Part shown: positions 21,691 to 40,412 of the stretch, piece by piece
How positions within the stretch are numbered: the first letter of the stretch is position 1
Layout of the letters: each line of letters begins with the position of its first letter
Virus record (IMG/VR): IMGVR_UViG_2718218136_000004
Direction: 5' to 3' (one strand)
Length of the DNA: 56,412 nt
Source: a virus
Taxonomy: Duplodnaviria > Heunggongvirae > Uroviricota > Caudoviricetes
Position numbers and translations under genes: made by a program
The notes under the pieces: generated by a model
The model's input: the letters and a program-made list of their open reading frames with translations, nothing else
What the model was told of the DNA's origin: nothing
Database searches by the model: none

Positions 21691-21706
21691 TATAGGTGAT
21701 ATTTTT

Positions 21707-21985: not shown

Positions 21986-21995
21986 TTACCGACAA

Positions 21996-22024
21996 CCCCG
22001 CACCACGCAATGCGGGGTTTTTTG
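21996..22024 (+). terminator. Intrinsic terminator after second alpA-like gene
   Basis: CCCCGCA-CCACGCAA-TGCGGGG followed by TTTTTTT. Confidence 0.55.
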
Positions 22025-22042
22025 TATGTGAGGTAAAAAGCA

Positions 22043-22621: not shown

Positions 22622-23064
22622 CCACACGCGGTGTTGATTATACGGTACATCGTGTTGACCGGGAAGCTACCCACCAGCAAGGCAAAATCTTCTGCTAAAA
22701 AATGACATATGACCAGTCGTCCGGAAAGCATGAAATTTTACAAAAATGGAAAATGAAGATTTTTATTGTGCTGGTGGGTAAAAACAAAAAGCGCCCCGTT
22801 ACCGGAGCGCCCTTGCGAACAATTAACCTACTGCGCAAAAAATGAATCTGTGCGGGGGGATTATATCAACCGTGGTCGAAATGACCATAGTTGCAGGATA
22901 ACAGGCAAAACAAAGGCCACCCGCTACGGTGGCCCCTTGACACAAGCTACACGTTATCCCCAACGCATGAGCATAACCAACAATGCCACATTTACGGCTG
23001 GTGGGCAAATCCTGAGCTGTTCTGTAATTACAGAAACTACGGCATTGTCGCGGTTAGGTTATGA

Positions 23065-23217
23065 TCAACTTTTTTTCAACTCTATATCGCAAGCACGCCG
23101 TAATATATCGCCTTCATTGCTTCCGCAAAGATTCTTTTTCTCGAAGCATGATTTTAAGATAAAGGCGGCGACAATTAGAACAATCGCACAGAGTGCACAA
23201 TTTTTAAGTTTTGGCAT
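23065..23217 (-). CDS. Small hydrophobic peptide (50 aa)
   Basis: [28 protein letters not shown]... with AGGAG RBS 7 nt upstream; downstream of an RHH-like gene on the same strand. Confidence 0.4.
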
Positions 23218-23271
23218 CTTTTACTCCTATGGTTGCCGCCGTGATTCCTCACACCACGGCGCTGGTGATGG

Positions 23272-23451
23272 TTATTCCTGCTCTTTGGCCTTGCGACGCT
23301 GGCGGTATTCAACTTCTCGCTTTAATGCTGCTGTTACAAACTGCCCTGTACTTTCACCAGGCATTTTTACCGCCTCAACATTGTTCATAACTTCATGCGG
23401 AACCCTTGCCGCAACTGTTTGTGATTTTGCGTTTACTGCTTTTGTTGCCAT
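23272..23451 (-). CDS. Ribbon-helix-helix-like small DNA-binding protein
   Basis: 59 aa; ...[17 protein letters not shown]...[16 protein letters not shown] fits an RHH strand-helix-helix pattern; adjacent to palindromic operators. Confidence 0.45.
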
Positions 23452-23501
23452 GTTGTGTACCCCTTACAAAAAACAAATGCAGTATGCAGGAAAAAAAATA
23501 A

Positions 23502-23553
23502 GTGTTCAACACTTGACGTGTTTAACACTAGGGCTTAAATTGGTGTTCAACAC
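23502..23553. promoter_or_regulatory. Satellite operator region: three GTGTT(C/T)AACAC palindromes between divergent operons
   Basis: Palindromes at 23502-23512, 23518-23528, 23543-23553. Confidence 0.45.
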
Positions 23554-23650
23554 CTTGCTGATGCAAGGTGCAGAAACGACGAAACCCGGCAGTGCGCTAA
23601 CACTAACCGGGCTTCTAACCACCAACGATAGAAAGCGTATCGAGGTAGCT

Positions 23651-24190
23651 ATGCTAAATCATACCACACACCCGCAAGGGCGGGACTCGCACAACCTGAA
23701 TAAACCCGATGTAAAAAACCTGTTGATCGCCACTGCCAGCCAGGGCTATGATTTACCCGCACCAGCAAAATCTGGTGCCGGGATTGGCGTCCTGGTATTT
23801 AACGAAGCGCACAACACGCGCCCTGCGTGTTTTTTTGTGCCGGATAGTCACACCTTATCAATGGTGGGCTGTATGGGGGCGGAGCAATCCGCGCCGGGTT
23901 CTTCGTTAACCGGTTACGCCAACCCTGTACAGTCCACCGCCAGCGAAATTGGCGTTTCCTGCGGTGGGTTTATTAAACCTAACGAAGAGGCTGCCAACAT
24001 GGCTACTATCCCTACCCTTGTACATTCCCAAACTGCCTTTATCTGGCGCTTTATCATCTTTGGCGCGTCAGAGTCCCAAATCATCCACGTCACCGCCTGG
24101 ACGGAACGCGAAGCGCGTAACCATTGCCCGTCAGGTTGTGTCGCTGTATTCGCCGCCCGTATTCGTCAGGGGGTGCGCCATGTGCAATAA
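23651..24190 (+). CDS. Hypothetical protein (first gene of satellite rightward operon)
   Basis: GAGG RBS before ATG at 23651; stop overlaps next start; amino-acid composition not strongly protein-like. Confidence 0.3.
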
Positions 24191-24425
24191 CACCCGTCCG
24201 GACGCAGCCGCCGAAGCCATCAAAACGCTGATGCACGCGCTGATTGATATTTCATGCACGGTAGCAACCGCAGAAAAACACATTACCAGAGAGACGGAAT
24301 ATACAGGGGCGATAATCCCGCATTCGCTGGCTTACGCACAGCTTACCGCTGATATGGCGCTGAATGAGGCTAAAGCCATCCTGATTGCTGATTGTGAAAA
24401 TGGCGGGGGCGATTATGCGAAATAA
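24180..24425 (+). CDS. Hypothetical protein
   Basis: 81-aa [28 protein letters not shown]..., start overlaps upstream stop. Confidence 0.4.
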
Positions 24426-24633
24426 ACATGATATTGAAGACCTGGCATTTGAAGCCCTGCACTCTGCGAAAAAAATCAGGGAAGTCGTCAATATGTGGAT
24501 GAACAGCCTTAGCACCGATAAATCCGATAGCAGAGAAGAAATTCTTATTTCTTTGTTGTTAGACCTGGCAAATACACAGGTTTCTCTGACATCTGATATT
24601 GAGCTCGCCGCTAAAAAGCTGCCTCTGGAGTAA
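24412..24633 (+). CDS. Hypothetical protein
   Basis: 73-aa [28 protein letters not shown]..., start overlaps upstream stop. Confidence 0.4.
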   Translation: MMRNKHDIEDLAFEALHSAKKIREVVNMWMNSLSTDKSDSREEILISLLLDLANTQVSLTSDIELAAKKLPLE

Positions 24634-24639
24634 AAAAAC

Positions 24640-24954
24640 ATGAAAAAGAAAAATTCTGGCTTTACTGCCAGCGGTCACGCTCGGCCTGAAATCCGCCCCG
24701 GTGATATTTTCCGGGATAAATACGGCAGCACGATAACGATTAAAACCGTCGATGATTTTCGTGTGACCTATATCCGCGAAGGTTATGCGCATCCCTGCGT
24801 GTCGTCACATATGCGCTTTGACAGGGAGTTCACCCTGGTAAGCAAAGCACCACCAGCAGAATTAAGCGACATCGACAGAATCATGCGCGTTACAGGAATG
24901 GAACGCATTAAGGCAGTACGTGAAATTATTCGTGAACGGGGAAAGGCAAAATGA
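24640..24954 (+). CDS. Hypothetical protein
   Basis: 104-aa ORF overlapping the start of the replication gene. Confidence 0.45.
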   Translation: MKKKNSGFTASGHARPEIRPGDIFRDKYGSTITIKTVDDFRVTYIREGYAHPCVSSHMRFDREFTLVSKAPPAELSDIDRIMRVTGMERIKAVREIIRERGKAK

Positions 24955-27077
24955 AGCGCGCACCAAACTTAAAGCACCAGCCAGCCGACAAAATGACGGA
25001 GGTTATCATCTTTGCGGGTAGTGATGCGTGGAGCCATGCGAAAGAGTGGCAGGAATGGGCAGGTAAGCATATTGCCGCCGACAATGTGCCGCCTGTCGTT
25101 CTGTCAGATGAACACCTGAAAGATATTACCGGTTATCAAATTATTGATGATAGCCGTCAGTGTGTGCGTATTTACCGCGCAGGGCACATCACTGAACGTA
25201 GCCTCACACAGATCGTCACGTTGCTGGCTGTGGCTGGCGTGAAGACCGTATACGAATACGCGGGGATAACTGACACCAGCCCGGCGGATTTATCCGACCA
25301 GTTGCCTCGCCTCAAAGACGAATACGAGCGCGGGGAAAGTCTGGTGTTGCCCTTAAAGAAAAAAATCACAGAAAGCCCGGGTGATGATGAATTAAAGCCC
25401 CGCGTTGAAAGCCGCGCCGATGGTGTTTTCTGGGTAACGCCAAAAGTGGATAAGCAGTCAGGCGAAATTATCCGGCCTGAAACGTGGTTATGCTCCCCGC
25501 TTGAGCTACTGGGAACGGGGACAATCGGCAAAGAGCATTACCGCGTGATGCGCTGGAAAAAGCCAGCAAACCATGAAGTCATCACGATGGCGGTTCCGTG
25601 CGGTGGCATTGGCGACCGTGACGGCTGGCGGCTGCTGAAAGACCACGGACTGAACGTGACAACCAACGGTAAATACAGGGCTATCCTGGCTGACTGGATG
25701 CAGTTAAGCGGAAACCATGAGGAATGGCAGTTAAGCACAACAACGGGCTGGCATTTTGGCGCGTACATCATGCCGGACGGTTCGGTCATTGGTGATTGCG
25801 AAAAGCCAGTCCTGTTTACCGGAAAAACGGCTGCCGTTAATGGTTATTCCGTGGCAGGAACGGCGGAGGGCTGGCGCGACAGTGTGGCGCGACTGGCTGG
25901 TGGTAATCCGTCCATGATGCTGGGTGTGGCGGTATCGCTATCCGCACCATTAATCGGGCTGGTGGGTGCTGACGGCTTCGGGGTACATCTTTTCGAACAG
26001 TCATCGGCAGGTAAGACCACAACGCAGAACATCGCATCAAGTTTATGGGGAGAGCCGGACGCGCAGCGGCTGACCTGGTACGGCACAGCGTTAGGTATCG
26101 CCAACGAAGCAGAGGCACACAATGACGGGCTTTTACCCCTGGATGAAATAGGCCAGGCCGGAAACGCGCGGGAGGTGTCCACGTCAGCCTATACGCTGTT
26201 TAACGGTTCGGGGAAATTACAGGGGGCGAAGGACGGCGGCAACAGGGAGATCAAACACTGGCGCACGGTGGCAATCAGCACCGGAGAAATGGACGTTGAG
26301 ACATTCCTCAAAACGGAGGGGATAAAAGTCAAAGTGGGGCAGCTTGTCCGCCTGCTTAACGTTCCGATGGAAAAAGCCACGCAATTTCACGAATACAGCA
26401 CCGGAAAGGCGCACGCAGACGCGTTAAAGGATGCCTGGACAGAAAATCACGGGGCGGCGGGTCGTGAGTGGGTTAAATGGCTGGCAGAACACCAGCAGGA
26501 GGCAAAGGACACGGTAAGGACATGCCGTGAGCGGTGGCGCAACCTGATACCGGAGAGCTACGGCGAACAGGTTCACCGTGTGGGGGAGCGATTTGCCATA
26601 CTGGAGGCCGCGCTTGTGCTTTCAGGTCATGTTACTGGCTGGGATGAGCAGGAATGCCGCGATGCCATACAGCATAATTTTAATGCCTGGGTGAAGGAGT
26701 TCGGCACGGGTAACAGGGAATTTAAACAGATGGTTGAACAGGCAGAAGCTTTTTTAGCGTCGTTCGGATTCAGCAGATACCTTCCGTGGCCCAATACCGA
26801 CGAGCGTGATTTACCGATTAAAGAACTTGCCGGATACAGAAAGGGGAGTATCAGAAACGAAGATGACGAGTTCCGTTTTTACACGTTCCCGCATGTATTT
26901 GAGGGTGAGATAGCACAGGGATTTAATCCGTCTCACTTTGCCCGCGCGTTGAGTGCTGCCGGAATGCTGGAAGCGGGTAACGATCGCCGTTACAAGAAAA
27001 AGGCGCTCGGCAAAATTGGGGGGAAGCAGCATGTTTTTTACGTGCTGATGTTCCAGCCAGAAAGCGAAGAAGATTAA
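24951..27077 (+). CDS. Satellite replication initiator, primase/helicase-like P-loop NTPase (DUF927-like)
   Basis: 708-aa ORF with Walker A-like SSAGKTTTQN; immediately upstream of an iteron/AT-rich origin and an SSB gene. Confidence 0.6.
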   Translation: MKRAPNLKHQPADKMTEVIIFAGSDAWSHAKEWQEWAGKHIAADNVPPVVLSDEHLKDITGYQIIDDSRQCVRIYRAGHITERSLTQIVTLLAVAGVKTVYEYAGITDTSPADLSDQLPRLKDEYERGESLVLPLKKKITESPGDDELKPRVESRADGVFWVTPKVDKQSGEIIRPETWLCSPLELLGTGTIGKEHYRVMRWKKPANHEVITMAVPCGGIGDRDGWRLLKDHGLNVTTNGKYRAILADWMQLSGNHEEWQLSTTTGWHFGAYIMPDGSVIGDCEKPVLFTGKTAAVNGYSVAGTAEGWRDSVARLAGGNPSMMLGVAVSLSAPLIGLVGADGFGVHLFEQSSAGKTTTQNIASSLWGEPDAQRLTWYGTALGIANEAEAHNDGLLPLDEIGQAGNAREVSTSAYTLFNGSGKLQGAKDGGNREIKHWRTVAISTGEMDVETFLKTEGIKVKVGQLVRLLNVPMEKATQFHEYSTGKAHADALKDAWTENHGAAGREWVKWLAEHQQEAKDTVRTCRERWRNLIPESYGEQVHRVGERFAILEAALVLSGHVTGWDEQECRDAIQHNFNAWVKEFGTGNREFKQMVEQAEAFLASFGFSRYLPWPNTDERDLPIKELAGYRKGSIRNEDDEFRFYTFPHVFEGEIAQGFNPSHFARALSAAGMLEAGNDRRYKKKALGKIGGKQHVFYVLMFQPESEED

Positions 27078-27099
27078 TTTTTTCTCGCGTGTAGGGTGA

Positions 27100-27255
27100 A
27101 AATTTTGCGGGTTATGCGGGTTATTTCTGTGGATAAATCAGTATCCATATGATTATTAAAGGAATGACAGGAAAATCGTAACCCGCAAAATACCCAAAAT
27201 AACCCGCAAAACGGCAGTTATAACCCGCAAAAGTGCGATTATAACCCGCAGAATT
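27100..27255. repeat. Candidate satellite origin of replication: GCGGGTTAT x2, AT-rich spacer, ATAACCCGCAAAA x4
   Basis: Inverted iteron sets flanking an AT-rich segment immediately 3' of the replication gene. Confidence 0.6.
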
Positions 27256-27313
27256 TCACAGTAAGGGTGTAAACAAGCGTAACTATCAACGTTAAAACCG
27301 GAGAACAGACAGC

Positions 27314-27739
27314 ATGACAGCACAGATAGCGGCTTACGGGCGGCTGGTGGCTGACCCGCAGTTAAAGACCACCAGCAAGGGGACACAAATGGCTATGGCG
27401 AGTATGGCGGTTCCCCTGCCGTGCAGCCAGGCAGATGAAGGAACGGCGACGATGTGGTTATCCGTCCTGGCGTTTGGCAGACAGGCCGATGCACTGGCAA
27501 AACACCAGAAAGGCGAACTGGTGAGTGTGGCGGGTAACATGCAGGTAAGCCAGTGGACAGGCCAGAACGGCGAAATGCGGCAGGGCTGGCAGGTCATCGC
27601 AGACAGCGTAATCAGTGCGCGAACGGCGCGACCGGGCGGCAAAAAAGGCCAGCAGGGCCAGGCTACTGACGCACTGAACAGGGCAAAACAACAGACAGGC
27701 CAGCACGATGATCCGTACGGGGACGGGATACCGTTTTAA
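27314..27739 (+). CDS. Single-stranded DNA-binding protein (SSB-like)
   Basis: 141-aa ORF ending ...DDPYGDGIPF, resembling the acidic SSB C-terminal tail (DDDIPF). Confidence 0.6.
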   Translation: MTAQIAAYGRLVADPQLKTTSKGTQMAMASMAVPLPCSQADEGTATMWLSVLAFGRQADALAKHQKGELVSVAGNMQVSQWTGQNGEMRQGWQVIADSVISARTARPGGKKGQQGQATDALNRAKQQTGQHDDPYGDGIPF

Positions 27740-27754
27740 GCAGTGAGGTACAGC

Positions 27755-28051
27755 ATGATTAAAGACAGCAAAGCGGAAGAACTGGAGGCTAAAGGGCTGT
27801 ACCGGAGAGCGGCGGCACGTTGGGCTGATGTTATGTGGCTGGTGAGCACTGACAAGGAGCGCGAACAGGTGGCAAAGCGTCGCGCGGAATGTATCCGTAA
27901 GGCAGCGCGTCAACCAGTCATACCGGATAATTTCGGAATACTGAAAGAGGCCATAAACCGCACACATACCGGGATGGGCTTACAGAAACCTGGCGGTGAG
28001 ATGTTCAGGAACTACCCGAAAAAAAAAGGGATAATTGATAACGGTTGTTAA
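27755..28051 (+). CDS. Hypothetical small protein
   Basis: 98-aa ORF with GTGAGG RBS. Confidence 0.4.
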   Translation: MIKDSKAEELEAKGLYRRAAARWADVMWLVSTDKEREQVAKRRAECIRKAARQPVIPDNFGILKEAINRTHTGMGLQKPGGEMFRNYPKKKGIIDNGC

Positions 28052-28605: not shown

Positions 28606-29775
28606 ATGAAGAAATTAATCGAACTCCGCCAGCAAAAAACCGCCCTGAAAAACCAGATGCGATCCCTGCTGGAAAAAGCCGACAGTGAAAACCGCAGCCT
28701 GAACGATGACGAGGGCAAACAGTTTGATGAACTGCGTGCAAAAGCCGATTCCCTCGACACAGAAATTTCCCGCCTCGAGTCTGTGGCTGATGAAGAACGC
28801 AGCAAGCCAGGAACGGGCATCCAGAAATTATCATCTGATGAATTGCGTAACTATATCGTAACCGGAGATGTGCGATCACTGTCCACCAGCACTGACAGCG
28901 GCAGGGATGGCGGATATACCGTAATTCCTGAGCTTGATCGCGAAGTCATGCGCCAGCTACAGGATGACAGTGTTATGCGCGTGATCGCGACCGTGAAGAC
29001 CGCAAAATCAAATGAGTTTCAGAAACTGGTTTCCACTGGCGGCGCAACTGTAGGAAGAGGCACAGAAGGCAGCGCGCGCAGCGAAACCAACACCCCGAAA
29101 ATTGAACGCGTAACCATCAAGCTGAATCCGATCTACGCCTACCCGAAAACCACGCAGGAAATCCTGGATTTTTCAGAGGTGGATATTCTGGGCTGGTTAT
29201 CCTCCGAAATTGCCGACACGTTCGCCAGCACCGAAGAGGATGATTTTGTTAATGGCGACGGTAACGGCAAGCCGAAAGGATTCATGGCTTACACCCGTGC
29301 GGCGACCAGTGACAAAACCCGCGCTTTTGGCACCATTGAAAAAATGGTAGCGGCAAGTGGAACCGCCATTACAGCGGACGAACTGATCGACATTCTCTAC
29401 AAGCTGAAAGCGAAATACCGCAAAAATGCCGTCTGGGTGATGAACTCGGGCACGGCAGGGACACTACAGAAGCTGAAAAATGAGAACGGCGATTATATCT
29501 GGCGCGACAGCCTTAAAGAAGGTGCGCCGGATATGTTGCTTGGTCGTCCTGTTTACTGCCTGGAGTCCATGCCGGACATCGGCGCAGGAAAAGCACCGCT
29601 AGCGGTTGGCGATTTCAGTCGTGGTTATTTCATCGTTGATCATGTAACAGGGATTCGCACCCGACCGGACAACATTACTGAACCCGGATTCTACAAGGTC
29701 CACACGGATAAATATCTGGGCGGTGGTGTGGTGGATTCAAACGCCATCAAAATTCTGGAAATGAAAGCTGGCTAG
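28606..29775 (+). CDS. Satellite major capsid protein (HK97 fold) with N-terminal coiled-coil delta domain
   Basis: 389 aa; C-terminal region co-linear with the prophage capsid protein (38304-39509). Confidence 0.8.
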   Translation: MKKLIELRQQKTALKNQMRSLLEKADSENRSLNDDEGKQFDELRAKADSLDTEISRLESVADEERSKPGTGIQKLSSDELRNYIVTGDVRSLSTSTDSGRDGGYTVIPELDREVMRQLQDDSVMRVIATVKTAKSNEFQKLVSTGGATVGRGTEGSARSETNTPKIERVTIKLNPIYAYPKTTQEILDFSEVDILGWLSSEIADTFASTEEDDFVNGDGNGKPKGFMAYTRAATSDKTRAFGTIEKMVAASGTAITADELIDILYKLKAKYRKNAVWVMNSGTAGTLQKLKNENGDYIWRDSLKEGAPDMLLGRPVYCLESMPDIGAGKAPLAVGDFSRGYFIVDHVTGIRTRPDNITEPGFYKVHTDKYLGGGVVDSNAIKILEMKAG

Positions 29776-29787
29776 TCATGAGTAAGG

Positions 29788-29810
29788 AGGAGGCTGCGGC
29801 CTCCTTTTTC
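29788..29810 (+). terminator. Stem-loop with T-run after satellite capsid gene
   Basis: AGGAGGC-TGCG-GCCTCCT followed by TTTTT. Confidence 0.4.
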
Positions 29811-29829
29811 AGCTTTATGGAGTACACCG

Positions 29830-30390
29830 ATGAAAAACACCGATTTTGAAATCCGCACATCTGAACTGACCGCCAGCGATAAAAAACTGGTGGGTTATGC
29901 CGTTCGCTGGAACAGCCTTTCAGAAATTATCTGGGACGAATTCCGCGAACAGTTCACGCCGGGGGCTTTTGCTGACTATCTGGCGGCGGGTAATGATGTG
30001 CGCTGCCTGTATGAGCATGACTATACCCAACTGCTGGGGCGCACCAAATCCGGCACTCTGGTACTGACTGAGGATAACACCGGGTTACGTTTTGAGCTGA
30101 CACCGCCGGATACCCAGCTTGGAAAAGATGTGCTTACGCTGGTGGAGCGTGGCGACATTACAGGAATGAGCTTTGGTTTTCGCGCATTATGCGAGGAGTG
30201 GAGTATCGCGCAAAAACCGTATTTGCGTACCGTAACTGCCGCAGAACTCCGTGAAATCACGATAACGTCGATGCCTGCTTATCCCGAATCCGGCGTGGAG
30301 ATTGCCCACCGTTCGTTGTTTGCACAGCACCCTGAATTACGCCCGGCAGGAAATAATCGTCATCGCTGGGCTGAACTGGCGGGGTTGTGA
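29830..30390 (+). CDS. Satellite prohead protease (HK97 family)
   Basis: 186-aa ORF similar in N-terminus to the prophage protease; between capsid and portal genes. Confidence 0.75.
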   Translation: MKNTDFEIRTSELTASDKKLVGYAVRWNSLSEIIWDEFREQFTPGAFADYLAAGNDVRCLYEHDYTQLLGRTKSGTLVLTEDNTGLRFELTPPDTQLGKDVLTLVERGDITGMSFGFRALCEEWSIAQKPYLRTVTAAELREITITSMPAYPESGVEIAHRSLFAQHPELRPAGNNRHRWAELAGL

Positions 30391-30391
30391 T

Positions 30392-31615
30392 ATGTGGTGG
30401 CCTTTTAGTCGTAAAAAAAGCGAGCTGCGTAACCTGTCCATTGATGATTTTCTGGCGCTGTCCGGCGTACCGAATACCGGAGCCGGAGAATATGTTTCTG
30501 CCGGGACGGCTGAATCATTGCCTGCTGTGATGAACGCGGTTTCTGTCATCGCTGAGGCGGTGGCCACGATGCCGTGTTATCTGTATCTGGTACGTAATGA
30601 CAAGGGCAGGGAGGCGCGGGAATGGTTGGACAGTCACCCGGTCGATATTCTGCTGAATGAGCAGCCTAATTCGTGCCAGACACCTTACCAGTTTAAACGC
30701 ACAATGATGCGTCACTGCCTGCTGAACGGTAACGCCTATGCGGTTATTGAGTGGGGGCGGGACGGTCAGCCAAAATCACTTCATCCTTATGCGCCGGGGT
30801 GTGTTGTACCGGAACGCACAGGCGCACACAAATACCGCTATACCATCACCGAACCCTATACAGGAACGGTGCGCACGTATTTACAGGAAGAAGTTCTGCA
30901 TCTCCGCTATGCCTCGGATGATGGCTTTCTGGGGCGCTCCCCTGTCACGATTTGCCGTGAGGCACTTGGGCTTGGCCTTGCTCAACAGCGCCACGGAGCC
31001 AGCATTATGAAAGATGGCATGATGGCGGCAGGGATTATCACGTCAGGCGAATGGCTGGACGGCGTGAAAGGTAAACAGGCATTGGATGCTCTGGAACGCT
31101 ACAAGGGGGCGAAAAATGCCGGAAAAACGCCAATCCTTGAAGGGGGCATGGATTACAAGCAACTGGGAATGAGTAACCAGGATGCGGAATGGCTGGCCTC
31201 CCGTCGCTTCTCCATTGAAGACATTGCCCGTATGTTCAACGTATCGCCTATTTTTCTGCAGGAATACAGCAATAGCACCTACAGCAATTTCAGCGAGGCA
31301 AGCCGCGCGTTTCTGACCATGACAATGCGCCCATGGCTGGCGAACTTCGAACAGCAAATCAAGGCTGCTTTGCTGGTGGCTTCTCCCGTACCTGGTACCC
31401 GTTATCTGGTTGAGTTTGATTCAGCCGATTTACTGCGCGCCACACCTACCGAACGTTACGCCACGTATGAGAAAGGAATTAAGAACGGGATCATGAATCC
31501 GAACGAAGCCCGTGAGCGTGAGGGAATGCCGCCGCGTGAAGGTGGCGACGAGTTCAGCCAGGCATGGAAGCAGGAAGTGACAATCAGCAAGAACAGTAAG
31601 GGCGGTGACGAATGA
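30392..31615 (+). CDS. Satellite portal protein (HK97 family)
   Basis: ATG at 30392 after protease stop; segments homologous to the prophage portal (36420-37661). Confidence 0.8.
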   Translation: MWWPFSRKKSELRNLSIDDFLALSGVPNTGAGEYVSAGTAESLPAVMNAVSVIAEAVATMPCYLYLVRNDKGREAREWLDSHPVDILLNEQPNSCQTPYQFKRTMMRHCLLNGNAYAVIEWGRDGQPKSLHPYAPGCVVPERTGAHKYRYTITEPYTGTVRTYLQEEVLHLRYASDDGFLGRSPVTICREALGLGLAQQRHGASIMKDGMMAAGIITSGEWLDGVKGKQALDALERYKGAKNAGKTPILEGGMDYKQLGMSNQDAEWLASRRFSIEDIARMFNVSPIFLQEYSNSTYSNFSEASRAFLTMTMRPWLANFEQQIKAALLVASPVPGTRYLVEFDSADLLRATPTERYATYEKGIKNGIMNPNEAREREGMPPREGGDEFSQAWKQEVTISKNSKGGDE

Positions 31616-31950
31616 TAGCCGGAAATATGCGGGACCGGGTGACGATTATGACATTTACCACACAGCGCCTGCCGTCAGGTGCGATCCAGCAGATATGGAC
31701 GGAAGGGGAAACCATCTGGGCAGAGGTCAAGGGGATCAGCGGACGGGAATTACTGACCGCAGGCGCAGAAACCGCACCTGCAACGATTCGGGTATGGGTT
31801 CGCTATCGTGGCGACATATCCGCCGCCAGTCGCCTGAAAGTGCTTACCGGCGCTTTTGCCGGGAGCACGCTTAATATCATCGGGATCCCCTTACCTGATG
31901 CGAAAAGAACCCGGCTGGAAATTCTGGCAAAGGTGGGTACAGAAAAATGA
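31612..31950 (+). CDS. Satellite head-tail adaptor / head closure protein
   Basis: 112 aa, about 60% identical by eye to the prophage homologue at 40074-40412 (shared TIWAEVKGISGRE, RLEIL). Confidence 0.7.
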   Translation: MIAGNMRDRVTIMTFTTQRLPSGAIQQIWTEGETIWAEVKGISGRELLTAGAETAPATIRVWVRYRGDISAASRLKVLTGAFAGSTLNIIGIPLPDAKRTRLEILAKVGTEK

Positions 31951-32243
31951 CAGCAGAAAAAATAACCCTGGAAGAGGCCAAACTTCACTGCCGCATAGAT
32001 GGTAACACAGAAGACACACTGATTCAGGCATACATAAGCGCGGCGCTGGAGGTATGCCAGAAGCATATTGGCAGGCGTTTTGATGACGGCCTGGAATTTA
32101 CCCCTGCAATAAAAATTGGTTGCCTGATGTACATCTCGCAACTGTACGAGTACCGGACAACGCTTGGCGATACCGATACAAAAGAAATTCCCCTGACGAT
32201 TTCCGCGCTCTGGTCGGTTTATCGTGATGTGGGGGTGTACTGA
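31947..32243 (+). CDS. Satellite head-tail connector (gp6-like)
   Basis: 98-aa ORF; related to the prophage protein at 39760-40065 (shared CRID...N...E pattern). Confidence 0.6.
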   Translation: MTAEKITLEEAKLHCRIDGNTEDTLIQAYISAALEVCQKHIGRRFDDGLEFTPAIKIGCLMYISQLYEYRTTLGDTDTKEIPLTISALWSVYRDVGVY

Positions 32244-32683
32244 TGCCATGGCAACCATTAAGGCGATGCACTGAGCCGGGCTGTAATAAGCGCGTGAAGT
32301 CCGGCAAGTGTGAAGAGCACAGGCGGGCTGCATGGCGTGCAGAGGATGCCAGACGGGGACACCGCCGCGCACGTGGGTATTCCCGACTGTGGGACAAATA
32401 CCGCGCCATGTACCTGAAAAAAAATCCGTTATGCGTGCGTTGTCTGGCTAAGGGTATTTATACGCCAGCTCTTGTGGTGGATCACATCATTCCCATCAAT
32501 GGCGGCGGTGATGTTCTCTTCTGGCCTGAGTGGAACCACCAGGCATTGTGCCAGACGTGCCACAACCGTAAGACGACACGGGAAGATCCAGCCACGAAAG
32601 CGAACCGTAAGGCGGGCATGTATCGCGAGCAGGAAGAACGGGCGGCACATCGTAACGACTGGATGTATGGCGATGATGACTGA
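32243..32683 (+). CDS. Satellite HNH endonuclease
   Basis: Cys-rich N-terminus and VVDHIIPINGGGD...ALCQTCHNRKT HNH motif; upstream of terS. Confidence 0.8.
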   Translation: MPWQPLRRCTEPGCNKRVKSGKCEEHRRAAWRAEDARRGHRRARGYSRLWDKYRAMYLKKNPLCVRCLAKGIYTPALVVDHIIPINGGGDVLFWPEWNHQALCQTCHNRKTTREDPATKANRKAGMYREQEERAAHRNDWMYGDDD

Positions 32684-32971
32684 ACAGGAGCAAAACAGGC
32701 TGATACGTGGACTGATAAGGCAGCGTGACTTATGGAAGACACAGGAGACAGGGCACAAAGCCAACAGGACAGAGCGCACAGAACGCACCACAGCGAAGCG
32801 ATTAACCGACCGTGACCGCGAGGTCATGGAATGTTTTCGCAATCGCTGGTGAGGCCGTCAGAGGGGGTGGGGGAGGTTTTCAGGACGAAACCGCCCCTGC
32901 CGGACACCGACCGCCTCCTCAAATTTTTGTGCACGGGAATTTTTTTGAAAATAATTGGGCGAAAAAAGAAC

Positions 32972-33328
32972 ATGGCAAGACCACCAAAAGCCCCCGCTTA
33001 CCTGGATGAAATCGCGGTCAGGCAGTGGAAGGAAAAATCGCGCCAGCTTTCCGGGCGGGAAGACCTTACCCCCGCCGACTGGAGCAATCTGGAACTGTAT
33101 TGTGTTAACTACTCCATATACCGCAAAGCCGTCGAAGACCTTGCGACGCGCGGGTTCAGCATTGTTAACAGTCAGGGCAGCGAGAGCAGAAACCCCGCCC
33201 TGAGCGCAAAGGCTGACGCGGAAAGAATAATGATCAAAATGGCTTCTTTGCTGGGTTTTGACCCGGTAAGCCGCCGCAGAAATCCACCGGAAACAGAGGA
33301 AGAGGACGAGCTTGACCGCCTGGCATGA
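32972..33328 (+). CDS. Satellite terminase small subunit (P27 family)
   Basis: Start at MARPPKAPAYLDE... (ATG 32972); upstream of and overlapping terL. Confidence 0.65.
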   Translation: MARPPKAPAYLDEIAVRQWKEKSRQLSGREDLTPADWSNLELYCVNYSIYRKAVEDLATRGFSIVNSQGSESRNPALSAKADAERIMIKMASLLGFDPVSRRRNPPETEEEDELDRLA

Positions 33329-34973
33329 GTACGCAGAAGGCGTAAAAAACGGCAAAATTACGGCCTGTAAACGACTGAAACAGGCCGTTAAACGGTATTT
33401 TTATGACCTTGAAAACCCCCTTTACACGTTCGAACCGGAGGTCGTGGAGCGGTTTATTGCCTTTTCCAGGGTGTGTCCGCACGTAAAAGGCGCAATGCGT
33501 GGTAGCCCCATTGAGCTGGAGCCGTGGCAGCAGTTCGCCTTTGCGTGCATCCTGGGCTTTAAGGTTAAGGCCACCGGACGGCGCAAATACACCAGCGCAT
33601 TCATTGAAGTACCGCGAAAAAATGCCAAATCCACGGTCGCCGCTATCCTGGCTAACTGGTTTCTGGTTATGGAAAACGGGCAGCAGGATATTTACACCGC
33701 CGCCGTGAGTCGTGATCAGGCGCGGATCGTGTTTGATGATGCGCGTCAGATGTGCCTTTTATCCCGACCGTTACGAAAGCGGGTAAATATTCAGGCACAC
33801 AAGGTGATACACCCGAAAACCAACAGCCTGTTAAAGCCACTGGCAGCAAAAGCGGCAACCATTGAAGGTACAAACCCGAGTCTTGCCATTGTAGATGAAT
33901 ATCACCTGCACCCTGACAACGGGGTTTATTCCGCGCTTGAACTGGGAATGGGGGCGCGTCCGGAGGGGTTATTATTTGCCATCACCACATCGGGGAGCAA
34001 CGTTGTTTCAGCCTGTAAACAACACTACGACTATTGCTGCCAGATACTGGATGGTGAAGAGGTGAACGAATCCATGTTCGTACTGATTTACGAGCTGGAT
34101 GATGAAAGCGAGGTTGACGATCCGGCGATGTGGATAAAGGCGAATCCCAATATCGATGTTTCCGTCGATCGTGAAAAACTGGCCTCAACCATCCAGAAAG
34201 CGCGGGGTATTCCGTCGCAGTGGGTGGAAATGCTCACCAAGCGATTCAATATCTGGTGTCAGGGGGCTACGCCGTGGATGGGTAACGGTGCATGGGCGGA
34301 GTGCGCCGGAACGTTCGCGGAGGCGGATTTATACGGGCAGGAGTGCTACGTGGGGCTGGACTTATCATCAACCAGCGATATTTCTAGCGTGTGCTATGCC
34401 TTTCCGGTCGGTAAAAAGATTATGCTGGTTTCCCGTCACTATCTGCCGGAATTTCAGTTACAGAACCCCGCCAATAAAAACCGCGCCATTTATCGCCAGT
34501 GGGTAAAGGCGGGCTGGATACGCACAACACCGGGTGACTGCATTGATTATGACCGTATCCGTGATGACATCATGGTGGATGCAGAGAATTTCAGTATCAG
34601 GCTGGTGGGCTTCGATACATGGAACGCCACTCACCTGAGAACACAGCTACAGGGGGCGGGATTTGAGGTGGAGCCGTTCCCGCAAACGTACCTTCGTTTC
34701 AGTCCGGCGGCGAAATCGTTCGAAGTTTTTGTTAACCGGAAGGTGATTGTGCATCGTGGTGATCCGGTGCTGGCCTGGTCAATGAGTAATGTTGTGATGC
34801 AGAGTGACGCGAACGCCAATATCAAGCCGAACAAGAAAAAATCATCCAACAAGATAGACCCGAGCGTTGCGGCGCTGATGGCGTTTGGCACATTCCAGGC
34901 AGAGCATGAGGAATTTGCATTCGATATGAGCGACAGCCACAAAGAGCGGCTTGCGACGTTTGATGGTGTGTAA
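33312..34973 (+). CDS. Satellite terminase large subunit, intact
   Basis: 553-aa ORF co-linear with both fragments of the split prophage terL (ATPase and nuclease domains). Confidence 0.85.
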   Translation: MTAWHEYAEGVKNGKITACKRLKQAVKRYFYDLENPLYTFEPEVVERFIAFSRVCPHVKGAMRGSPIELEPWQQFAFACILGFKVKATGRRKYTSAFIEVPRKNAKSTVAAILANWFLVMENGQQDIYTAAVSRDQARIVFDDARQMCLLSRPLRKRVNIQAHKVIHPKTNSLLKPLAAKAATIEGTNPSLAIVDEYHLHPDNGVYSALELGMGARPEGLLFAITTSGSNVVSACKQHYDYCCQILDGEEVNESMFVLIYELDDESEVDDPAMWIKANPNIDVSVDREKLASTIQKARGIPSQWVEMLTKRFNIWCQGATPWMGNGAWAECAGTFAEADLYGQECYVGLDLSSTSDISSVCYAFPVGKKIMLVSRHYLPEFQLQNPANKNRAIYRQWVKAGWIRTTPGDCIDYDRIRDDIMVDAENFSIRLVGFDTWNATHLRTQLQGAGFEVEPFPQTYLRFSPAAKSFEVFVNRKVIVHRGDPVLAWSMSNVVMQSDANANIKPNKKKSSNKIDPSVAALMAFGTFQAEHEEFAFDMSDSHKERLATFDGV

Positions 34974-35489: not shown

Positions 35490-35496
35490 TTACCAA
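35490..35496. repeat. attR crossover core (TTACCAA)
   Basis: Direct repeat of 20042-20048. Confidence 0.5.
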
Positions 35497-36226
35497 ACAC
35501 ATGAATGTGTGGGTAACAGCAGAGTCTGCCTGGATGGACATGATTAAGTGGGAGAAGTGCGAATACATTGCCCCGCGACATGAGCTGAAAACGTATCCCA
35601 TGTGGGTCGGCGTTGACCTTGCTCATAAGATTGATATCTGTGCGGCGGCAAAACTCTGGCGAACGGATAACGGGCATGTTCATGCCGATTTTAAATTCTG
35701 GCTCCCGGAAGGACGGCTGGAACGATGCTCGCGGCAGCAGGCAGAACTTTACCGGAAGTGGGCGGAGATGGATAAGCTGATTCTGACGGATGGTGATGTT
35801 ATCGATCATGCTCAGATAAAAAGTGACTTACTGGAATGGATTGGTGGTGAAAACCTCAGGGAACTGGGATTTGACCCGTGGAGCGCGATGCAGTTCAGCC
35901 TGGCACTGGCTGAAGAAGGGATACCGCTGGTGGAGGTTCCGCAGACGGTTCGCAATCTGTCAGAGGCCATGAAGGAAACGGAATCACTGGTCTATGCCGG
36001 ACGTTTCCATCACAGCAATCATCCGGTCATGAACTGGATGATGTCTAACGTTACGGTAAAACCGGACAAAAACGACAATATCTTCCCGAATAAATCCACG
36101 CTGGAAGCCAAAATCGACGGCCCTGTTGCGATGTTTACAGCAATGAGCCGGATGCTGGTCAATGGTGGTGAACCGGAGCCGGATCTGTCTGAACATCTGG
36201 TCAGCGTGGGCATCCGCTCGCTTTAA
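35490..36226 (+). CDS. Terminase large subunit, 3' portion (nuclease domain), continuation of the gene interrupted at 20048
   Basis: Translation ...[14 protein letters not shown]... is co-linear with the insert TerL segment ...TKRFNIWCQGATPW...; downstream motifs also conserved. Confidence 0.85.
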
Positions 36227-36237
36227 CCGAGGTCATT

Positions 36238-36420
36238 ATGTTTCTGATAATTCTCGCGCCACTGGTGGGCGTGCTGGGTGCGCTTTTGCTGGCGTATGGT
36301 GCCTGGCTGATTTATCCCCCGGCGGGTTTTGTTGTTGCCGGGGCGCTGTGCCTGTTCTGGTCGTGGCTGGTGGCGCGATATCTCGACCGTACACAGCCGT
36401 CTGTCGGCGGAGGTAAATAG
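36238..36420 (+). CDS. Small membrane protein
   Basis: 60-aa hydrophobic ORF between terL and portal. Confidence 0.4.
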
Positions 36421-37661
36421 TGTTCTTTTCGGGATTATTTCAACGAAAAAGTGACGCGCCGGTGACCACGCCAGCAGAGCTGGCGGATGCTATCGGGCTG
36501 TCATACGACACCTATACCGGAAAGCAGATCAGCAGCCAGCGGGCCATGCGACTGACGGCGGTTTTTTCCTGCGTCAGGGTGCTGGCAGAGTCGGTCGGGA
36601 TGTTGCCCTGCAATCTGTATCACCTGAACGGCAGCCTGAAACAGAGAGCCACCGGCGAACGTCTGCATAAGCTGATCTCCACGCATCCCAATGGATATAT
36701 GACGCCGCAGGAGTTCTGGGAGCTGGTGGTCACCTGTCTGTGCCTGAGGGGAAACTTTTACGCCTACAAAGTGAAAGCATTTGGCGAAGTGGCTGAACTG
36801 CTGCCCGTCGATCCTGGCTGTGTGGTACCGAAGCTTAACAGTAGCTGGGAGCCGGTCTATCAGGTCACATTCCCGGACGGCTCCACGGATGTACTGAGCC
36901 AGGAGGATATCTGGCATGTGCGCACGCTGACGCTGGACGGACTGGTGGGGCTGAATCCCATCGCCTATGCCCGCGAGGCAATATCGCTGGCGGCAGCGAC
37001 CGAAGAGCACGGGGCCAGACTGTTCAGCAATGGTGCGGTGACGTCCGGTGTGTTGCGTACAGAGCAGACGCTGTCAGATCAGGCTTACGAGCGCCTGAAG
37101 AAAGATTTTGAGGAGCGTCACACCGGGCTTGGCAATGCTCACCGCCCGATGATCCTTGAGATGGGGCTGGACTGGAAGTCGATGGCGCTGAACGCCGAGG
37201 ACAGCCAGTTCCTGGAAACCCGCAAGTTTCAGCTTGAAGAAATCTGTCGTCTGTTTCGGGTGCCGTTGCACATGGTGCAGAACACCGATCGCGCCACCTT
37301 CAACAATATCGAAGAGCTGGGGCTGGGATTTATCAACTATTCACTGGTGCCGTATCTGACCCGCATTGAGCAGCGGATCAACACCGGACTGGTACGAAAA
37401 AGTAAGCAGGGCGTTTATTACGCCAAATTTAACGCCGGGGCGTTACTGCGCGGGGATATGAAGTCCCGTTTTGAAGCCTACGCCACCGGGATCAACTGGG
37501 GAATTTACTCTCCTAATGACTGCCGCGACCTGGAAGATATGAATCCGCGTCCCGGTGGTGATGTCTATCTCACCCCGATGAACATGACCACGAAACCCTC
37601 CGATGGCAGTAAAGCCGGTAAGCAGAAGGATAACGCCAATGCAGACGAAACAACGTCTTGA
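36420..37661 (+). CDS. Portal protein (HK97 family)
   Basis: 413-aa ORF, GTG start after GGCGGAGG RBS; downstream of terL. Confidence 0.85.
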   Translation: MFFSGLFQRKSDAPVTTPAELADAIGLSYDTYTGKQISSQRAMRLTAVFSCVRVLAESVGMLPCNLYHLNGSLKQRATGERLHKLISTHPNGYMTPQEFWELVVTCLCLRGNFYAYKVKAFGEVAELLPVDPGCVVPKLNSSWEPVYQVTFPDGSTDVLSQEDIWHVRTLTLDGLVGLNPIAYAREAISLAAATEEHGARLFSNGAVTSGVLRTEQTLSDQAYERLKKDFEERHTGLGNAHRPMILEMGLDWKSMALNAEDSQFLETRKFQLEEICRLFRVPLHMVQNTDRATFNNIEELGLGFINYSLVPYLTRIEQRINTGLVRKSKQGVYYAKFNAGALLRGDMKSRFEAYATGINWGIYSPNDCRDLEDMNPRPGGDVYLTPMNMTTKPSDGSKAGKQKDNANADETTS

Positions 37662-38289
37662 TGTACCGCTGAGTCTGAAATCTGTCAGTGACTCCGGTGA
37701 GTTTGAAGGGTATGGCTCCGTCTTTGGTGTAAAGGACAGCCACGATGATGTGGTGATGTCCGGGGCATTTGCTGCTTCCCTGCGGGCGTGGAGTGACAGA
37801 AAAGCGTTACCTGCGCTGCTCTGGCAGCACCGCATGGATGAACCCATCGGTGTTTACACCGAAATGAAGGAAGACGATGTCGGGCTTTACGTCAGGGGAC
37901 GGTTGCTTATTGATGATGATCCCCTCGCAAAACGCGCACATGCACACATGAAGGCCGGTTCGTTAACCGGCCTTTCTATTGGGTACGTCCTGAAAGACTG
38001 GGAATACGACCGGAGCAAAGAAGCCTTTCTGCTGAAAGAAATCGACCTCTGGGAAGTCAGCCTGGTGACGTTCCCGTCTAACGACGAGGCGCGGATCAGC
38101 GACGTCAAGAACGCACTGGCCCGCGGGGAAATCCCCGAACAGAAAAAAATCGAAAGAGTCCTGCGTGATGTCGGACTCTCCCGTACCCAGGCCAAAGCAT
38201 TCATGGCCGGGGGCTATGGCGCACTGTCCCTGCGCGACGCTGAGGATGTGGGCTCTGCACTGAATGCACTGAAAAATCTGAACTTCTAA
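37639..38289 (+). CDS. Prohead protease (HK97 family)
   Basis: Start MQTKQRL...; GYGSVFGVKDSHDDVV... similar to the satellite protease. Confidence 0.8.
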   Translation: MQTKQRLDVPLSLKSVSDSGEFEGYGSVFGVKDSHDDVVMSGAFAASLRAWSDRKALPALLWQHRMDEPIGVYTEMKEDDVGLYVRGRLLIDDDPLAKRAHAHMKAGSLTGLSIGYVLKDWEYDRSKEAFLLKEIDLWEVSLVTFPSNDEARISDVKNALARGEIPEQKKIERVLRDVGLSRTQAKAFMAGGYGALSLRDAEDVGSALNALKNLNF

Positions 38290-38303
38290 TCAGGAGAAAT
38301 ACG

Positions 38304-39509
38304 ATGGCGGTTGATATTAAAGATGTCGAACAGGTCGCGCAGGAGCTGCAGCAGAAGTTTGACGACTTCAAAGCAAAGAACGACAAGCGCGTTGAGGCGA
38401 TTGAGCAGGAAAAAGGCAAACTTGCCGGGCAGGTGGAAACCCTGAACGGAAAACTCAGCGAGCTGGAAAATCTCAAAAGCGATCTTGAAAAAGAGCTGCT
38501 TGAGCTGAAACGTCCGGCAGGTGGTGCGCAAAATAAACTGGCCACCGAGCATAAAGAAGCGTTTGTGGGCTTCCTGCGTAAAGGCCGTGAAGATGGTCTG
38601 CGCGATCTGGAGCGTAAGGCATTACAGGTGGGCACCGATGAAGACGGCGGCTATGCCGTGCCGGAAGAACTGGATCGCAACATTCTCAATCTGCTGAAAG
38701 ATGAAGTGGTGATGCGCCAGGAAGCCACGGTGATCACCGTTGGCGGTTCCGACTACAAAAAACTGGTGAATCTGGGCGGCACGGCTTCCGGATGGGTTGG
38801 CGAGACTGACGCGCGCTCCCAGACTGCCACCTCAAAACTGGGACTGATTGAACCTTTCATGGGGGAAATCTACGGTAACCCGCAGGCCACCCAGAAAATG
38901 CTGGATGATGCTTTCTTCAACGTGGAGGCCTGGATCAACAGCGAGCTGGCAACCGAATTTGCCGAACAGGAAGAAATTGCCTTTACCACCGGCGATGGTA
39001 CCAAGAAGCCGAAAGGGTTCCTGGCGTATGAGTCCACTGATGAAACCGACAAGGTCCGGGCGTTCGGCAAACTTCAGCATATTGTATCCGGCGAAGCGAC
39101 GGCAGTGACCGCAGATGCCATTATCAAACTGATTTACACGCTGCGTAAGGCACACCGCACTGGCGCGAAGTTCATGATGAACAACAACAGCCTGTTTGCC
39201 ATCCGTCTGCTTAAAGACAGCGAGGGTAACTATCTGTGGCGTCCGGGGCTGGAACTGGGGCAGCCGTCCTCTCTGGCGGGTTACGGTATCGCTGAAAACG
39301 AACAGATGCCGGATATCGCCGCTGATGCGAAAGCCATTGCATTTGGTAACTTCAAACGGGGTTACACCATCGTTGACCGTATCGGCACCCGCATTCTGCG
39401 TGACCCGTACACCAATAAACCGTTTGTCGGTTTTTATACCACCAAGCGCACCGGCGGGATGCTGGTCGATTCGCAGGCCATCAAACTGCTGAAGATTGCA
39501 GCAGCGTAA
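38304..39509 (+). CDS. Major capsid protein (HK97 fold) with N-terminal coiled-coil
   Basis: 401-aa ORF; followed by a stem-loop; homologous to the satellite capsid protein. Confidence 0.85.
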   Translation: MAVDIKDVEQVAQELQQKFDDFKAKNDKRVEAIEQEKGKLAGQVETLNGKLSELENLKSDLEKELLELKRPAGGAQNKLATEHKEAFVGFLRKGREDGLRDLERKALQVGTDEDGGYAVPEELDRNILNLLKDEVVMRQEATVITVGGSDYKKLVNLGGTASGWVGETDARSQTATSKLGLIEPFMGEIYGNPQATQKMLDDAFFNVEAWINSELATEFAEQEEIAFTTGDGTKKPKGFLAYESTDETDKVRAFGKLQHIVSGEATAVTADAIIKLIYTLRKAHRTGAKFMMNNNSLFAIRLLKDSEGNYLWRPGLELGQPSSLAGYGIAENEQMPDIAADAKAIAFGNFKRGYTIVDRIGTRILRDPYTNKPFVGFYTTKRTGGMLVDSQAIKLLKIAAA

Positions 39510-39559
39510 TCATTCAGGGGGCGCAGAAGTGCGCCCCTGTTCTGACAGGTGAAAGAATC

Positions 39560-39748
39560 ATGATCCTGAAACAAGATCTGAAATGGTCACCGGACGGTAT
39601 GCGTGTTGAGATTATTCGGGCCGGTGAGTATGAAGATAAAGAATTACCCGAACGGGTACGCGAAATTGCCACTGCAGCTGGGATTGTCTCTGATAAGAGA
39701 ACACCTGTTGCGCGGGGGGCTGATAAGTCTAAAAAACAGCATTCATAG
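39560..39748 (+). CDS. Hypothetical small head-module protein
   Basis: 62-aa ORF. Confidence 0.4.
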   Translation: MILKQDLKWSPDGMRVEIIRAGEYEDKELPERVREIATAAGIVSDKRTPVARGADKSKKQHS

Positions 39749-39759
39749 AGGTTGCCCAA

Positions 39760-40065
39760 ATGATGCCCACTCTGGAAGAGCTTCGTGTTCAGTGCCGGAT
39801 TGATGATGACAATGAACAGGAGAATTCTCTTCTTATGATGTATCTGGCTGCTGCCAGGGAAGAGGCTGAAAAGTTTTTAAACCGGACGCTTTACGATGAA
39901 ACTGTTTCTGAGCAGGATACGACCGGGCTTGTAATAACACCTCTGATAAAACTGCGTCTTATGCAACTGGTTGGCTACTGGTACGAGAACAGGGAAATGC
40001 AGGATGCAGTGCCTGATTTTTTCTATACCGGACTGCGGATGTATCGATTTCATCCCGGAACATAG
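39760..40065 (+). CDS. Head-tail connector (gp6-like)
   Basis: 101-aa ORF in canonical position. Confidence 0.6.
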   Translation: MMPTLEELRVQCRIDDDNEQENSLLMMYLAAAREEAEKFLNRTLYDETVSEQDTTGLVITPLIKLRLMQLVGYWYENREMQDAVPDFFYTGLRMYRFHPGT

Positions 40066-40073: not shown

Positions 40074-40412
40074 ATGCAGGCAGGAAGATTACGTGATCGT
40101 GTGGTTATTCTGAATGCCACCACCGTTCGGTCTCCGTCAGGGCACCCTGTGGAAACAATGACGGAGGGGGCAACCATATGGGCAGAAGTTAAGGGGATCA
40201 GTGGCAGGGAGAGAATATCCGGAGGCGCAGAAACTGCTCAGGCTACAGTGAGGGTCTGGATGAGATTCCGGCGAGATGTAACAGCAACTTCATGTCTGAA
40301 AGTGCTGACTGGTGCATTCAAAGGCGCGATTCTGAGTATAGACGGTCCGCCGATACCGGATGCTCGTGCCACACGGCTTGAGATACTCTGTTCTCAGAAG
40401 GGGAATGTGTGA
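40074..40412 (+). CDS. Head closure / head-tail adaptor protein
   Basis: 112-aa ORF; close homologue of the satellite protein at 31612-31950. Confidence 0.7.
   Translation: MQAGRLRDRVVILNATTVRSPSGHPVETMTEGATIWAEVKGISGRERISGGAETAQATVRVWMRFRRDVTATSCLKVLTGAFKGAILSIDGPPIPDARATRLEILCSQKGNV

Follow-up and report, generated by a model that had tools for sequence, protein, structure and literature searches.

Phage-inducible chromosomal islands of the capsid-forming kind (cf-PICIs) are satellites that assemble capsids of their own and take nothing but tails from phages; their original definition requires attachment (att) sites that prophages never occupy, and their head proteins are reported to be less than 40% identical to phage counterparts (10.1101/2022.09.08.507074). 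Two of their genes, known as the "adaptor" and the "connector", set tail specificity: swapping them changes the tails that are used, and both are found exchanged between cf-PICI packaging modules that are otherwise nearly identical (He et al., 10.1101/2025.02.11.637232). Helper-embedded PICIs form a second published category (PMC10111431). The window considered here, a stretch of 56,412 nucleotides, is an Escherichia coli lambdoid prophage whose terL gene is interrupted by a 15,448-bp element, and this single locus joins two published ideas, that a satellite can be inserted into one of the late genes of the phage that probably helps it, and that a satellite can provide the head itself so that a tail is all it lacks. 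The element qualifies as a cf-PICI on the content and order of its genes, and as a helper-embedded PICI on its location; since both categories have been described, the element as such adds little novelty. The subject of this text is its neck (31612-32243), where the head-closure protein resembles those of phages, the rest of the satellite head module being only 19-42% identical to the phage counterparts. We consider it probable that this segment is the neck cassette of a cf-PICI, and that its closure protein is phage-like as the ring that must fit phage-encoded tail partners.

A phage-like closure protein in the satellite neck

In the cf-PICI papers, "adaptor" designates the gene that follows the portal gene and "connector" the next one; in phage neck annotations, the PF05521 protein is Hc1 (HK97 gp7, or the "stopper" gp16 of SPP1) and the PF05135 protein is Ad1 (HK97 gp6, SPP1 gp15). 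The head-closure class Hc1 reportedly stems from the Type 1 neck nomenclature of Lopes et al. from 2014. An earlier note on this DNA had claimed that the satellite adaptor closely resembles that of the helper, and pairwise comparison bears this out. Both closure genes are present as open reading frames (ORFs) of 112 codons for amino acids (Table 1), and BLASTP aligns the two proteins with 67/106 identities (63%), no gaps and E=4e-46, or 59.8% identity over the full 112 residues. The remaining satellite/helper pairs reach 41.5% for HNH, 37.0% for the major capsid protein (MCP), 34.7% for the gp6-like protein, 33.4% and 29.0% for the N- and C-terminal parts of TerL, 31.9% for the portal, 26.9% for TerS and 19.1% for the protease. 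The 63% of the closure pair is therefore to be set against 19-42% for the other head and packaging pairs; it is higher than all of them and lies about 4.6 standard deviations (SD) above the remainder (mean 31.7, SD 6.8). The long identical runs to which the note had drawn attention do exist, but WAEVKGISGRE and RLEIL among them are invariant across the whole family. Likewise, the gp6-like connectors are homologous, as it had suggested (31947-32243 against 39760-40065, 35% over 75 amino acids, E=7e-12), but they are no closer to each other than the rest of the head module is.

The assignment of the satellite protein to the closure class relies on both profiles and predicted structure. It scores 67.5 bits against PF05521, above the gathering cutoff of 25, and its gp6-like neighbour 45.9 bits against PF05135, above a cutoff of 21.2. 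A profile search of the PDB matches the closure protein to 2KZ4 (E=2.5e-43), and its AlphaFold2 model (pLDDT, the predicted local distance difference test, of 82.8) retrieves matches at a probability of 1.00 in Foldseek, with a template modelling (TM) score of 0.89 to the nuclear magnetic resonance structure 2KZ4 (54% identity) and of 0.81 to SPP1 gp16 within the gp6/gp15/gp16 connector 7Z4W; further phage neck structures were also matched. The predicted structure has the gp16-like beta-barrel fold. With the class of SPP1 gp16 and HK97 gp7, the satellite protein thus shares PF05521 and the fold, together with 58.9% identity to HK97 gp7; it differs in being encoded by a satellite and in that its gene lies upstream of the gp6-like gene and not downstream of it.

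On homology, the satellite would build and fill its own small capsid by means of its own MCP, protease, portal, HNH, TerS and TerL, and its gp6-like protein would bind the portal. The closure protein is expected, by analogy with its class, to form the last head-side ring, which would plug the channel and offer the docking surface for a pre-assembled phage tail. Such a tail would be capped by gp10-like and gp17-like proteins, which the satellite is without: queries with the gp10-like, gp17-like and tail-tube proteins of the helper, its presumed docking partners, matched the helper only and found no copy in the satellite, and each of the three is present once per locus. Nor are any tail or lysis genes annotated between the att sites in the nearly identical locus of strain APEC17. 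Since the closure protein must fit these phage-encoded partners, it would share a conserved family with the closure proteins of a large set of enterobacterial HK97-like siphophages. The earlier proposal of an element with its own capsid that docks onto helper tails agrees in this respect with a cf-PICI gene set devoid of tail genes, in which the protein expected to contact the tail is the most phage-like one; its supposed specificity for this helper does not hold, as will be seen below.

Closure genes among phages and satellites

A scan of species-representative genomes yielded 38 loci, which were typed by their neighbouring genes: the order portal-Hc-Ad-HNH marks ten of them and a 284-bp fragment (L048) as cf-PICIs, and the order Ad-Hc-gp10-gp17-tube marks 27 as phages. 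Compared with the 36 distinct phage closure proteins of the combined locus set, the satellite closure is 46-69% identical (median 58.9%, maximum 68.8%), and the resident prophage, at 59.8%, occupies the median rank. The maximum belongs to a Klebsiella michiganensis prophage, which is closer to the satellite than the resident helper is, as are several others; within the phage collection, the best matches are Klebsiella prophages at 64-69%. The nearest relatives of the satellite protein are the closure proteins of other cf-PICIs (70-74%), and its Ad1 is 81-85% identical to the Ad of other cf-PICIs; three such cf-PICIs, those whose flanks were inspected, occupy the fis/dusB chromosomal site. Moreover, the same cassette of closure and gp6-like genes (99% at the nucleotide level, identical Ad accession) is found in non-embedded cf-PICIs with other integrases, at roxA/phoQ (LH50-c) and rcnR/thiM (SM107). 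The 63% match is accordingly one of family-level conservation, marking a compatibility class and not a tuning to the resident prophage. The tail interface can therefore not be upheld as a dependency specific to this helper, since the likeness is common to the whole phage family and the nearest relatives are other cf-PICIs.

In phages, the closure gene behaves as part of the tail. Across 22 phage loci, the median pairwise identity is 34% for the portal, 44% for Ad, 63% for Hc, 69% for the gp10-like protein, 49% for the gp17-like protein and 52% for the tube, and the identity of Hc correlates with that of the gp17-like (rho 0.61) and gp10-like (0.47) proteins, with lower values for Ad (0.28) and portal (0.15). 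Given this pattern of divergence, the contrast between satellite and helper is the ordinary one between any two phages of the group that have unrelated heads. Helper variants make the same point at the nucleotide level: L002 and L003 have no homology to the window helper over 36172-40062, L005 has none over 39499-40062, and in all three homology restarts at exactly 40063, 11 nt before the closure start codon. The protein comparison of L002 and L003 with the window helper gives 29% for the portal, 26% for MCP and 48% for Ad on one side, and 91-92% for Hc, 99-100% for the gp10-like and 97-100% for the gp17-like protein on the other. The helper head block, 36420..40065, is replaced wholesale in other helper variants, and position 40063, between the gp6-like and closure genes, is a recurrent head/tail recombination boundary; together with the conservation of Hc, gp10-like and gp17-like proteins, it indicates that the closure gene is inherited with the tail module. 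In one of these loci, L003 (strain 10), an IS66-family element at 34407-36743 interrupts the helper tail tube gene, so that this helper is probably tail-defective; the satellite there is closure-positive.

Among satellites, the neck cassette is exchanged or reduced. In sister satellites at the same terL site (L002, L004-L007), the 466 bp at 31574-32039 are replaced by 121 bp between flanks that are 87-98% identical, and the portal gene is directly followed by another gp6-like allele, Ad2 (junction segments at 24497-26003 of L002 and 3038-4544 of L004, with equivalents in L005-L007). Ad2 is 58.6% identical to Ad1, the two alleles differing up to about residue 85. A tblastn search of these closure-less satellites with both closure proteins matched the helper copy only. 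A hidden or relic closure gene was considered and rejected, given the size of the 121-bp segment and the nearby hypothetical genes, which are uncorrelated with the presence of a closure gene. The idea that Ad2 stands nearer to the helper Ad was likewise discarded: like Ad1, it aligns clearly with satellite Ads, to which it is 52-62% identical in all other cf-PICIs, and distantly with helper Ads. Among complete E. coli genomes, 143 carry the closure-less junction and 16 the window-type cassette. In ETEC1749, for instance, the satellite is closure-less and the closure, gp10-like and gp17-like accessions of the helper are those found in the closure-positive APEC17.

Most simply, closure-less satellites would rely on the closure protein of the helper. 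Such borrowing is plausible because one phage closure allele works with Ad types that are only 48% identical. In phage lambda, the small head-completion protein gpFII is added last, is required for tail joining and can be supplied in trans to filled heads; it is a functional analogy only, and as such a precedent for closure-less satellites that would borrow the helper protein. A clear neck-cassette replacement is seen in a cf-PICI of Citrobacter amalonaticus (L049, 5001-5604), whose portal and TerL are 85% and 80% identical to those of the window satellite; its closure protein is at only 41.5% and groups with Providencia and Serratia phage types. With some hesitation, as we hold it slightly more doubtful than not, the closure ring may be viewed as functionally tail-side, in which case most E. 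coli cf-PICIs of this lineage would steal the helper closure along with the tail, and the window element would represent the rarer form, with this first tail-side part taken into its own gene set, perhaps so that it can define or broaden its tail range without depending on the helper.

Explanations for the likeness

It may seem natural that the closure protein of a satellite should be tuned to the tail of the very prophage that holds it. The closure pair is a clear outlier among the satellite/helper pairs, the satellite is physically tied to the prophage lineage, and the terL-occupied prophages examined carry nearly invariant Hc (91-100%), gp10-like (99-100%) and gp17-like (97-100%) proteins. 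Against such helper-specific co-adaptation, the resident helper ranks at the phage median, with the K. michiganensis prophage closer; the closest proteins of all are those of other cf-PICIs, and the identical residues are largely invariant in the family. In addition, the same cassette serves non-embedded cf-PICIs at two other sites, and satellites at the same terL site, facing helpers whose Hc, gp10-like and gp17-like accessions are those of APEC17, do without a closure gene. Co-adaptation to this helper is therefore improbable. Intrinsically slow evolution, by which the match would merely reflect a small constrained beta-barrel and say nothing about tails, is just as unlikely: the family does show 34 invariant columns in 18 sequences and a median between-phage identity of 63%, but it includes members that are only 41-50% identical, and divergence of the closure protein tracks that of the gp17-like and gp10-like proteins and not that of the portal, and the gene is inherited with the tail block. 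Between cf-PICIs, furthermore, the closure is among the fastest-diverging head proteins (70-74%, against 86-88% for portal, 82% for TerL and 81-85% for Ad), and being among the least conserved there, its closeness to phages cannot be explained by slow evolution. As for the two copies in this composite island, which are homologous and lie 8.5 kb apart in the same orientation, the probability that one was recently converted by or duplicated from the other is next to nil. Aligned as DNA, the two genes differ at positions scattered over their whole length, lack any long identical run and have unlike 3' ends, which excludes a recent conversion; and among strains in which the helper allele differs by 8-9%, that of the satellite stays at 99-100% identity.

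A later capture deserves more weight, and we regard it as possible, if still rather doubtful, that the closure gene or the whole neck cassette was recombined in from an HK97-like phage well after the remaining head module had diverged, its likeness being then a matter of younger age, which is compatible with docking. A neighbour-joining tree of this 112-aa protein, which was made without bootstrap and cannot settle the rooting, places the cf-PICI closure clade inside the phage radiation. That clade is 72-77% identical to the L018 phage protein, and between satellite and phage portals the identity is about 32-36%. Cassette exchange is documented by L049 and by the Ad1 and Ad2 satellites with their 97-98% identical flanks, the satellite has its closure gene ahead of the gp6-like one, the reverse of the phage order, and Tommasini et al. 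have proposed that PICIs capture late genes from helpers (PMC10111431). On the other hand, no near-identical donor came to light among phages, where 69% protein identity is the best match; the closure genes of the window are substantially diverged in DNA; and the cf-PICI closures, L049 excepted, form a single clade, consistent with long residence in the lineage. Constraint by phage tail-side partners and later exchange with phages are compatible readings of the phage likeness.

The preferred explanation, a closure ring held to the phage family by the tail partners it has to fit, meets several difficulties of its own. The correlations among phage loci are raised artificially by a number of E. 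coli loci that are close relatives, and the adjacency of the genes contributes as well. The docking partner, whether the gp17-like protein, the gp10-like protein or both, is taken over by analogy with SPP1. It is important to stress that 63% identity is no guarantee of compatibility, as adaptors 50% identical had different tail ranges (10.1101/2025.02.11.637232). Finally, closure-less satellites are about nine times commoner in E. coli than those with the cassette, and with 143 genomes against 16 an own closure protein is evidently dispensable for the persistence of the satellite.

The element, its insertion site and related satellites

The features of the locus are collected in Table 1; the annotation of the window was taken from the locus of strain APEC17 (L001), to which it is 99.6% identical. 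The prophage starts with an integrase at its left end, followed by Q, tRNAs, lysis genes, HNH-TerS-TerL, an HK97-type head and a lambda-type tail. Further observations in the helper are a DicF RNA at 4403-4454 (-), a sok antitoxin RNA beside hokD at 11003-11178 (+), three tRNA genes (Met/Ile2-type CAT, Thr and Gly) 3' of Q at 14690-14999 (+), and an IS009 RNA at the right edge, at 56174-56372 (+).

Table 1. Features of the satellite and of the surrounding helper prophage (window coordinates)
Feature	Position	Strand	Evidence or remark
Helper HNH (18040-18390), TerS (18539-19021) and TerL N-terminal fragment (19021-20048)	18040..20048	+	APEC17 (L001) annotation
attL core TTACCAA, junction of helper terL N-fragment and satellite	20042..20048	+	Alignment with uninterrupted terL of strain 165
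Satellite tyrosine integrase, 407 aa	20221..21444	+	PF00589, PF13356; in frame with helper terL N-fragment
Satellite regulatory "Bro" zone: AlpA-like, Bro-N, Ash-family, isrK and C4 RNAs, DUF4222	21677..24954	+	PF05930, PF02498, PF10554, PF13973; Rfam
Satellite replication zone: DUF927 primase/helicase, iteron-like repeats 27103-27253 (families D1, D2), SSB, PerC	24951..28051	+	
Satellite capsid genes: MCP (28606-29775), prohead protease (29830-30390), portal (30392-31615)	28606..31615	+	PF05065, PF04586, PF04860
Exchangeable neck cassette: portal 3' end, closure gene, most of gp6-like gene	31574..32200	+	blastn against sister satellites; right limit of about 32200 estimated
Satellite head-closure/stopper protein Hc1, 112 aa ("adaptor" in cf-PICI papers)	31612..31950	+	PF05521, E=1.7e-18
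Satellite gp6-like head-tail protein Ad1, 98 aa ("connector" in cf-PICI papers)	31947..32243	+	PF05135, E=7.8e-12
Satellite packaging genes: HNH (32243-32683), TerS (32831-33328), TerL (33312-34973)	32243..34973	+	PF01844, PF05119, PF03354 and PF20441
attR core TTACCAA, junction of satellite and helper terL C-fragment	35490..35496	+	Strain 165 alignment
Helper TerL C-terminal fragment	35497..36226	+	PF20441, profile positions 64-283
Helper head module: portal, protease, MCP, gp6-like Ad (39760-40065)	36420..40065	+	Pfam
Helper head-closure protein Hc1, opening gene of conserved tail-side block	40074..40412	+	PF05521, E=5.8e-21
Helper tail-side neck and tube: HK97-gp10-like Ne (40409-40858), gp17-like Tc (40855-41199), tail tube (41208-41963)	40409..41963	+	PF04883, PF11367, tail-tube matches

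With 15,448 bp between its att sites and a PF00589 integrase at its left end, the element falls within the range of about 10-18 kb of an att-bounded cf-PICI. Its Pfam matches run in the order int, AlpA, Bro-N, DUF927 primase, SSB, PerC and then MCP-protease-portal-closure-gp6-like-HNH-terS-terL. The late genes keep the cf-PICI order across 28606-34973, identical to that in L008-L017, L019 and L045, and the AlpA and replicase components are represented by PF05930 at 21677-21985, DUF927 at 24951-27077 and SSB at 27314-27739. It departs from the cf-PICI definition in one respect, as its att site lies within a prophage terL gene; the published helper-embedded PICIs (PMC10111431) imply that the criterion of prophage-free att sites is not universal.

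Some observations concern the satellite's own regulation and replication. In its Ash/Bro zone, Rfam places an isrK RNA at 23759-23835 (80 bits) beside a C4 antisense RNA at 23857-23944 (75 bits), a pairing that has been described in Gram-negative PICIs as the P4-type arrangement of immunity RNAs. This zone appears to differ between window 22700-24200 and L001 19620-21100, judging from ORF and annotation offsets: in place of the YlcI/YnfO and the truncated ash and icd genes of APEC17, the window has a long Ash-domain ORF at 22766-24190, which suggests that the satellite regulatory zone is a second exchangeable region. The repeats TAACCCGCAAAA / TTTTGCGGGTTA at 27103-27253, just 3' of the DUF927 primase gene, are probably iterons of a replication origin; the motif recurs at 35042-35080 and 35181-35207, at the right end of the satellite before attR.

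An empty terL site in strain 165 confirms both junctions of the insertion. The TTACCAA core equals the att identity "ttaccaa" of site group A:Terminase_1:246 in the PMC10111431 supplement, and the window junctions match the published attL and attR flanks, e.g. gggtgaatttttTTACCAAgaaagtaacatcacgccg and cttgaaatattcTTACCAAacacatgaatgtgtggg; from this identity of site and flanks, the element would be a member of that group. The integrase, the AlpA-like gene, the primase and the late zone all lie on the + strand, co-oriented with the helper terS and terL. This type of terL is present in about 1000 of 5426 complete E. coli genomes and occupied in 33; the matches of about 1000 E. coli genomes start only at window position 35483, as expected of an unoccupied terL. 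The terL site that the earlier note had listed among three dependencies on the helper is thus real, and it had already been catalogued as the helper-embedded site A:Terminase_1:246. Its third item, a possible cos dependency, finds no support: with blastn-short, the intergenic regions between HNH and terS (32601-32900 against 18331-18600), where cos would lie, share only chance matches of 7-8 nt, and HNH, TerS and TerL are all encoded by the satellite itself (27-42% identical to those of the helper). A side observation at the left junction is that the helper terL N-fragment runs in frame and without a stop into the satellite integrase, as one 807-aa ORF at 19021-21444, so that helper translation and late transcription could run into int. 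The same terminase-integrase fusion was flagged as an annotation issue for E. coli 042, a catalogued A:Terminase_1:246 member, by Tommasini, Mageeney and Williams in 2023 (PMC10111431).

When set beside the cf-PICIs EcCIEDL933, EcCIGN02175 and KpCIDSM30104 (Alqurainy et al. 2022/2023; He et al. 2025) by means of their descriptions, the element shares with them the lack of tail and lysis genes, a variable adaptor and connector, and head proteins less than 40% identical to those of phages, with the exception of the closure protein; it differs in sitting within a prophage gene. We noticed no statement in the papers of Alqurainy et al. and He et al. that the adaptor is the single phage-close protein. 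With the helper-embedded PICIs of group A:Terminase_1:246 (PMC10111431), it has in common the ttaccaa core, the flanks, the terL target, the co-orientation with the late operon and the four-zone organisation, in which the Bro zone carries isrK and C4 RNAs; the difference is that cf-PICIs and head-tail proteins go unmentioned in that account, whose induction experiments concerned a different site group (capsid E gene). Current understanding is not overturned, and the locus illustrates the known tail-docking biology of cf-PICIs. To this it adds that, of the satellite head proteins, only the closure protein has its place inside the phage family, that in phages this protein goes with the tail block, whose boundary is sharp and recurs, and that closure-less cf-PICIs are common. 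The latter, if functional, would have a further dependency on the helper. For cf-PICIs in general, a simple rule for predicting usable tails from sequence follows, namely to look among candidate phages for a closure/gp10-like/gp17-like block that corresponds to the closure protein.

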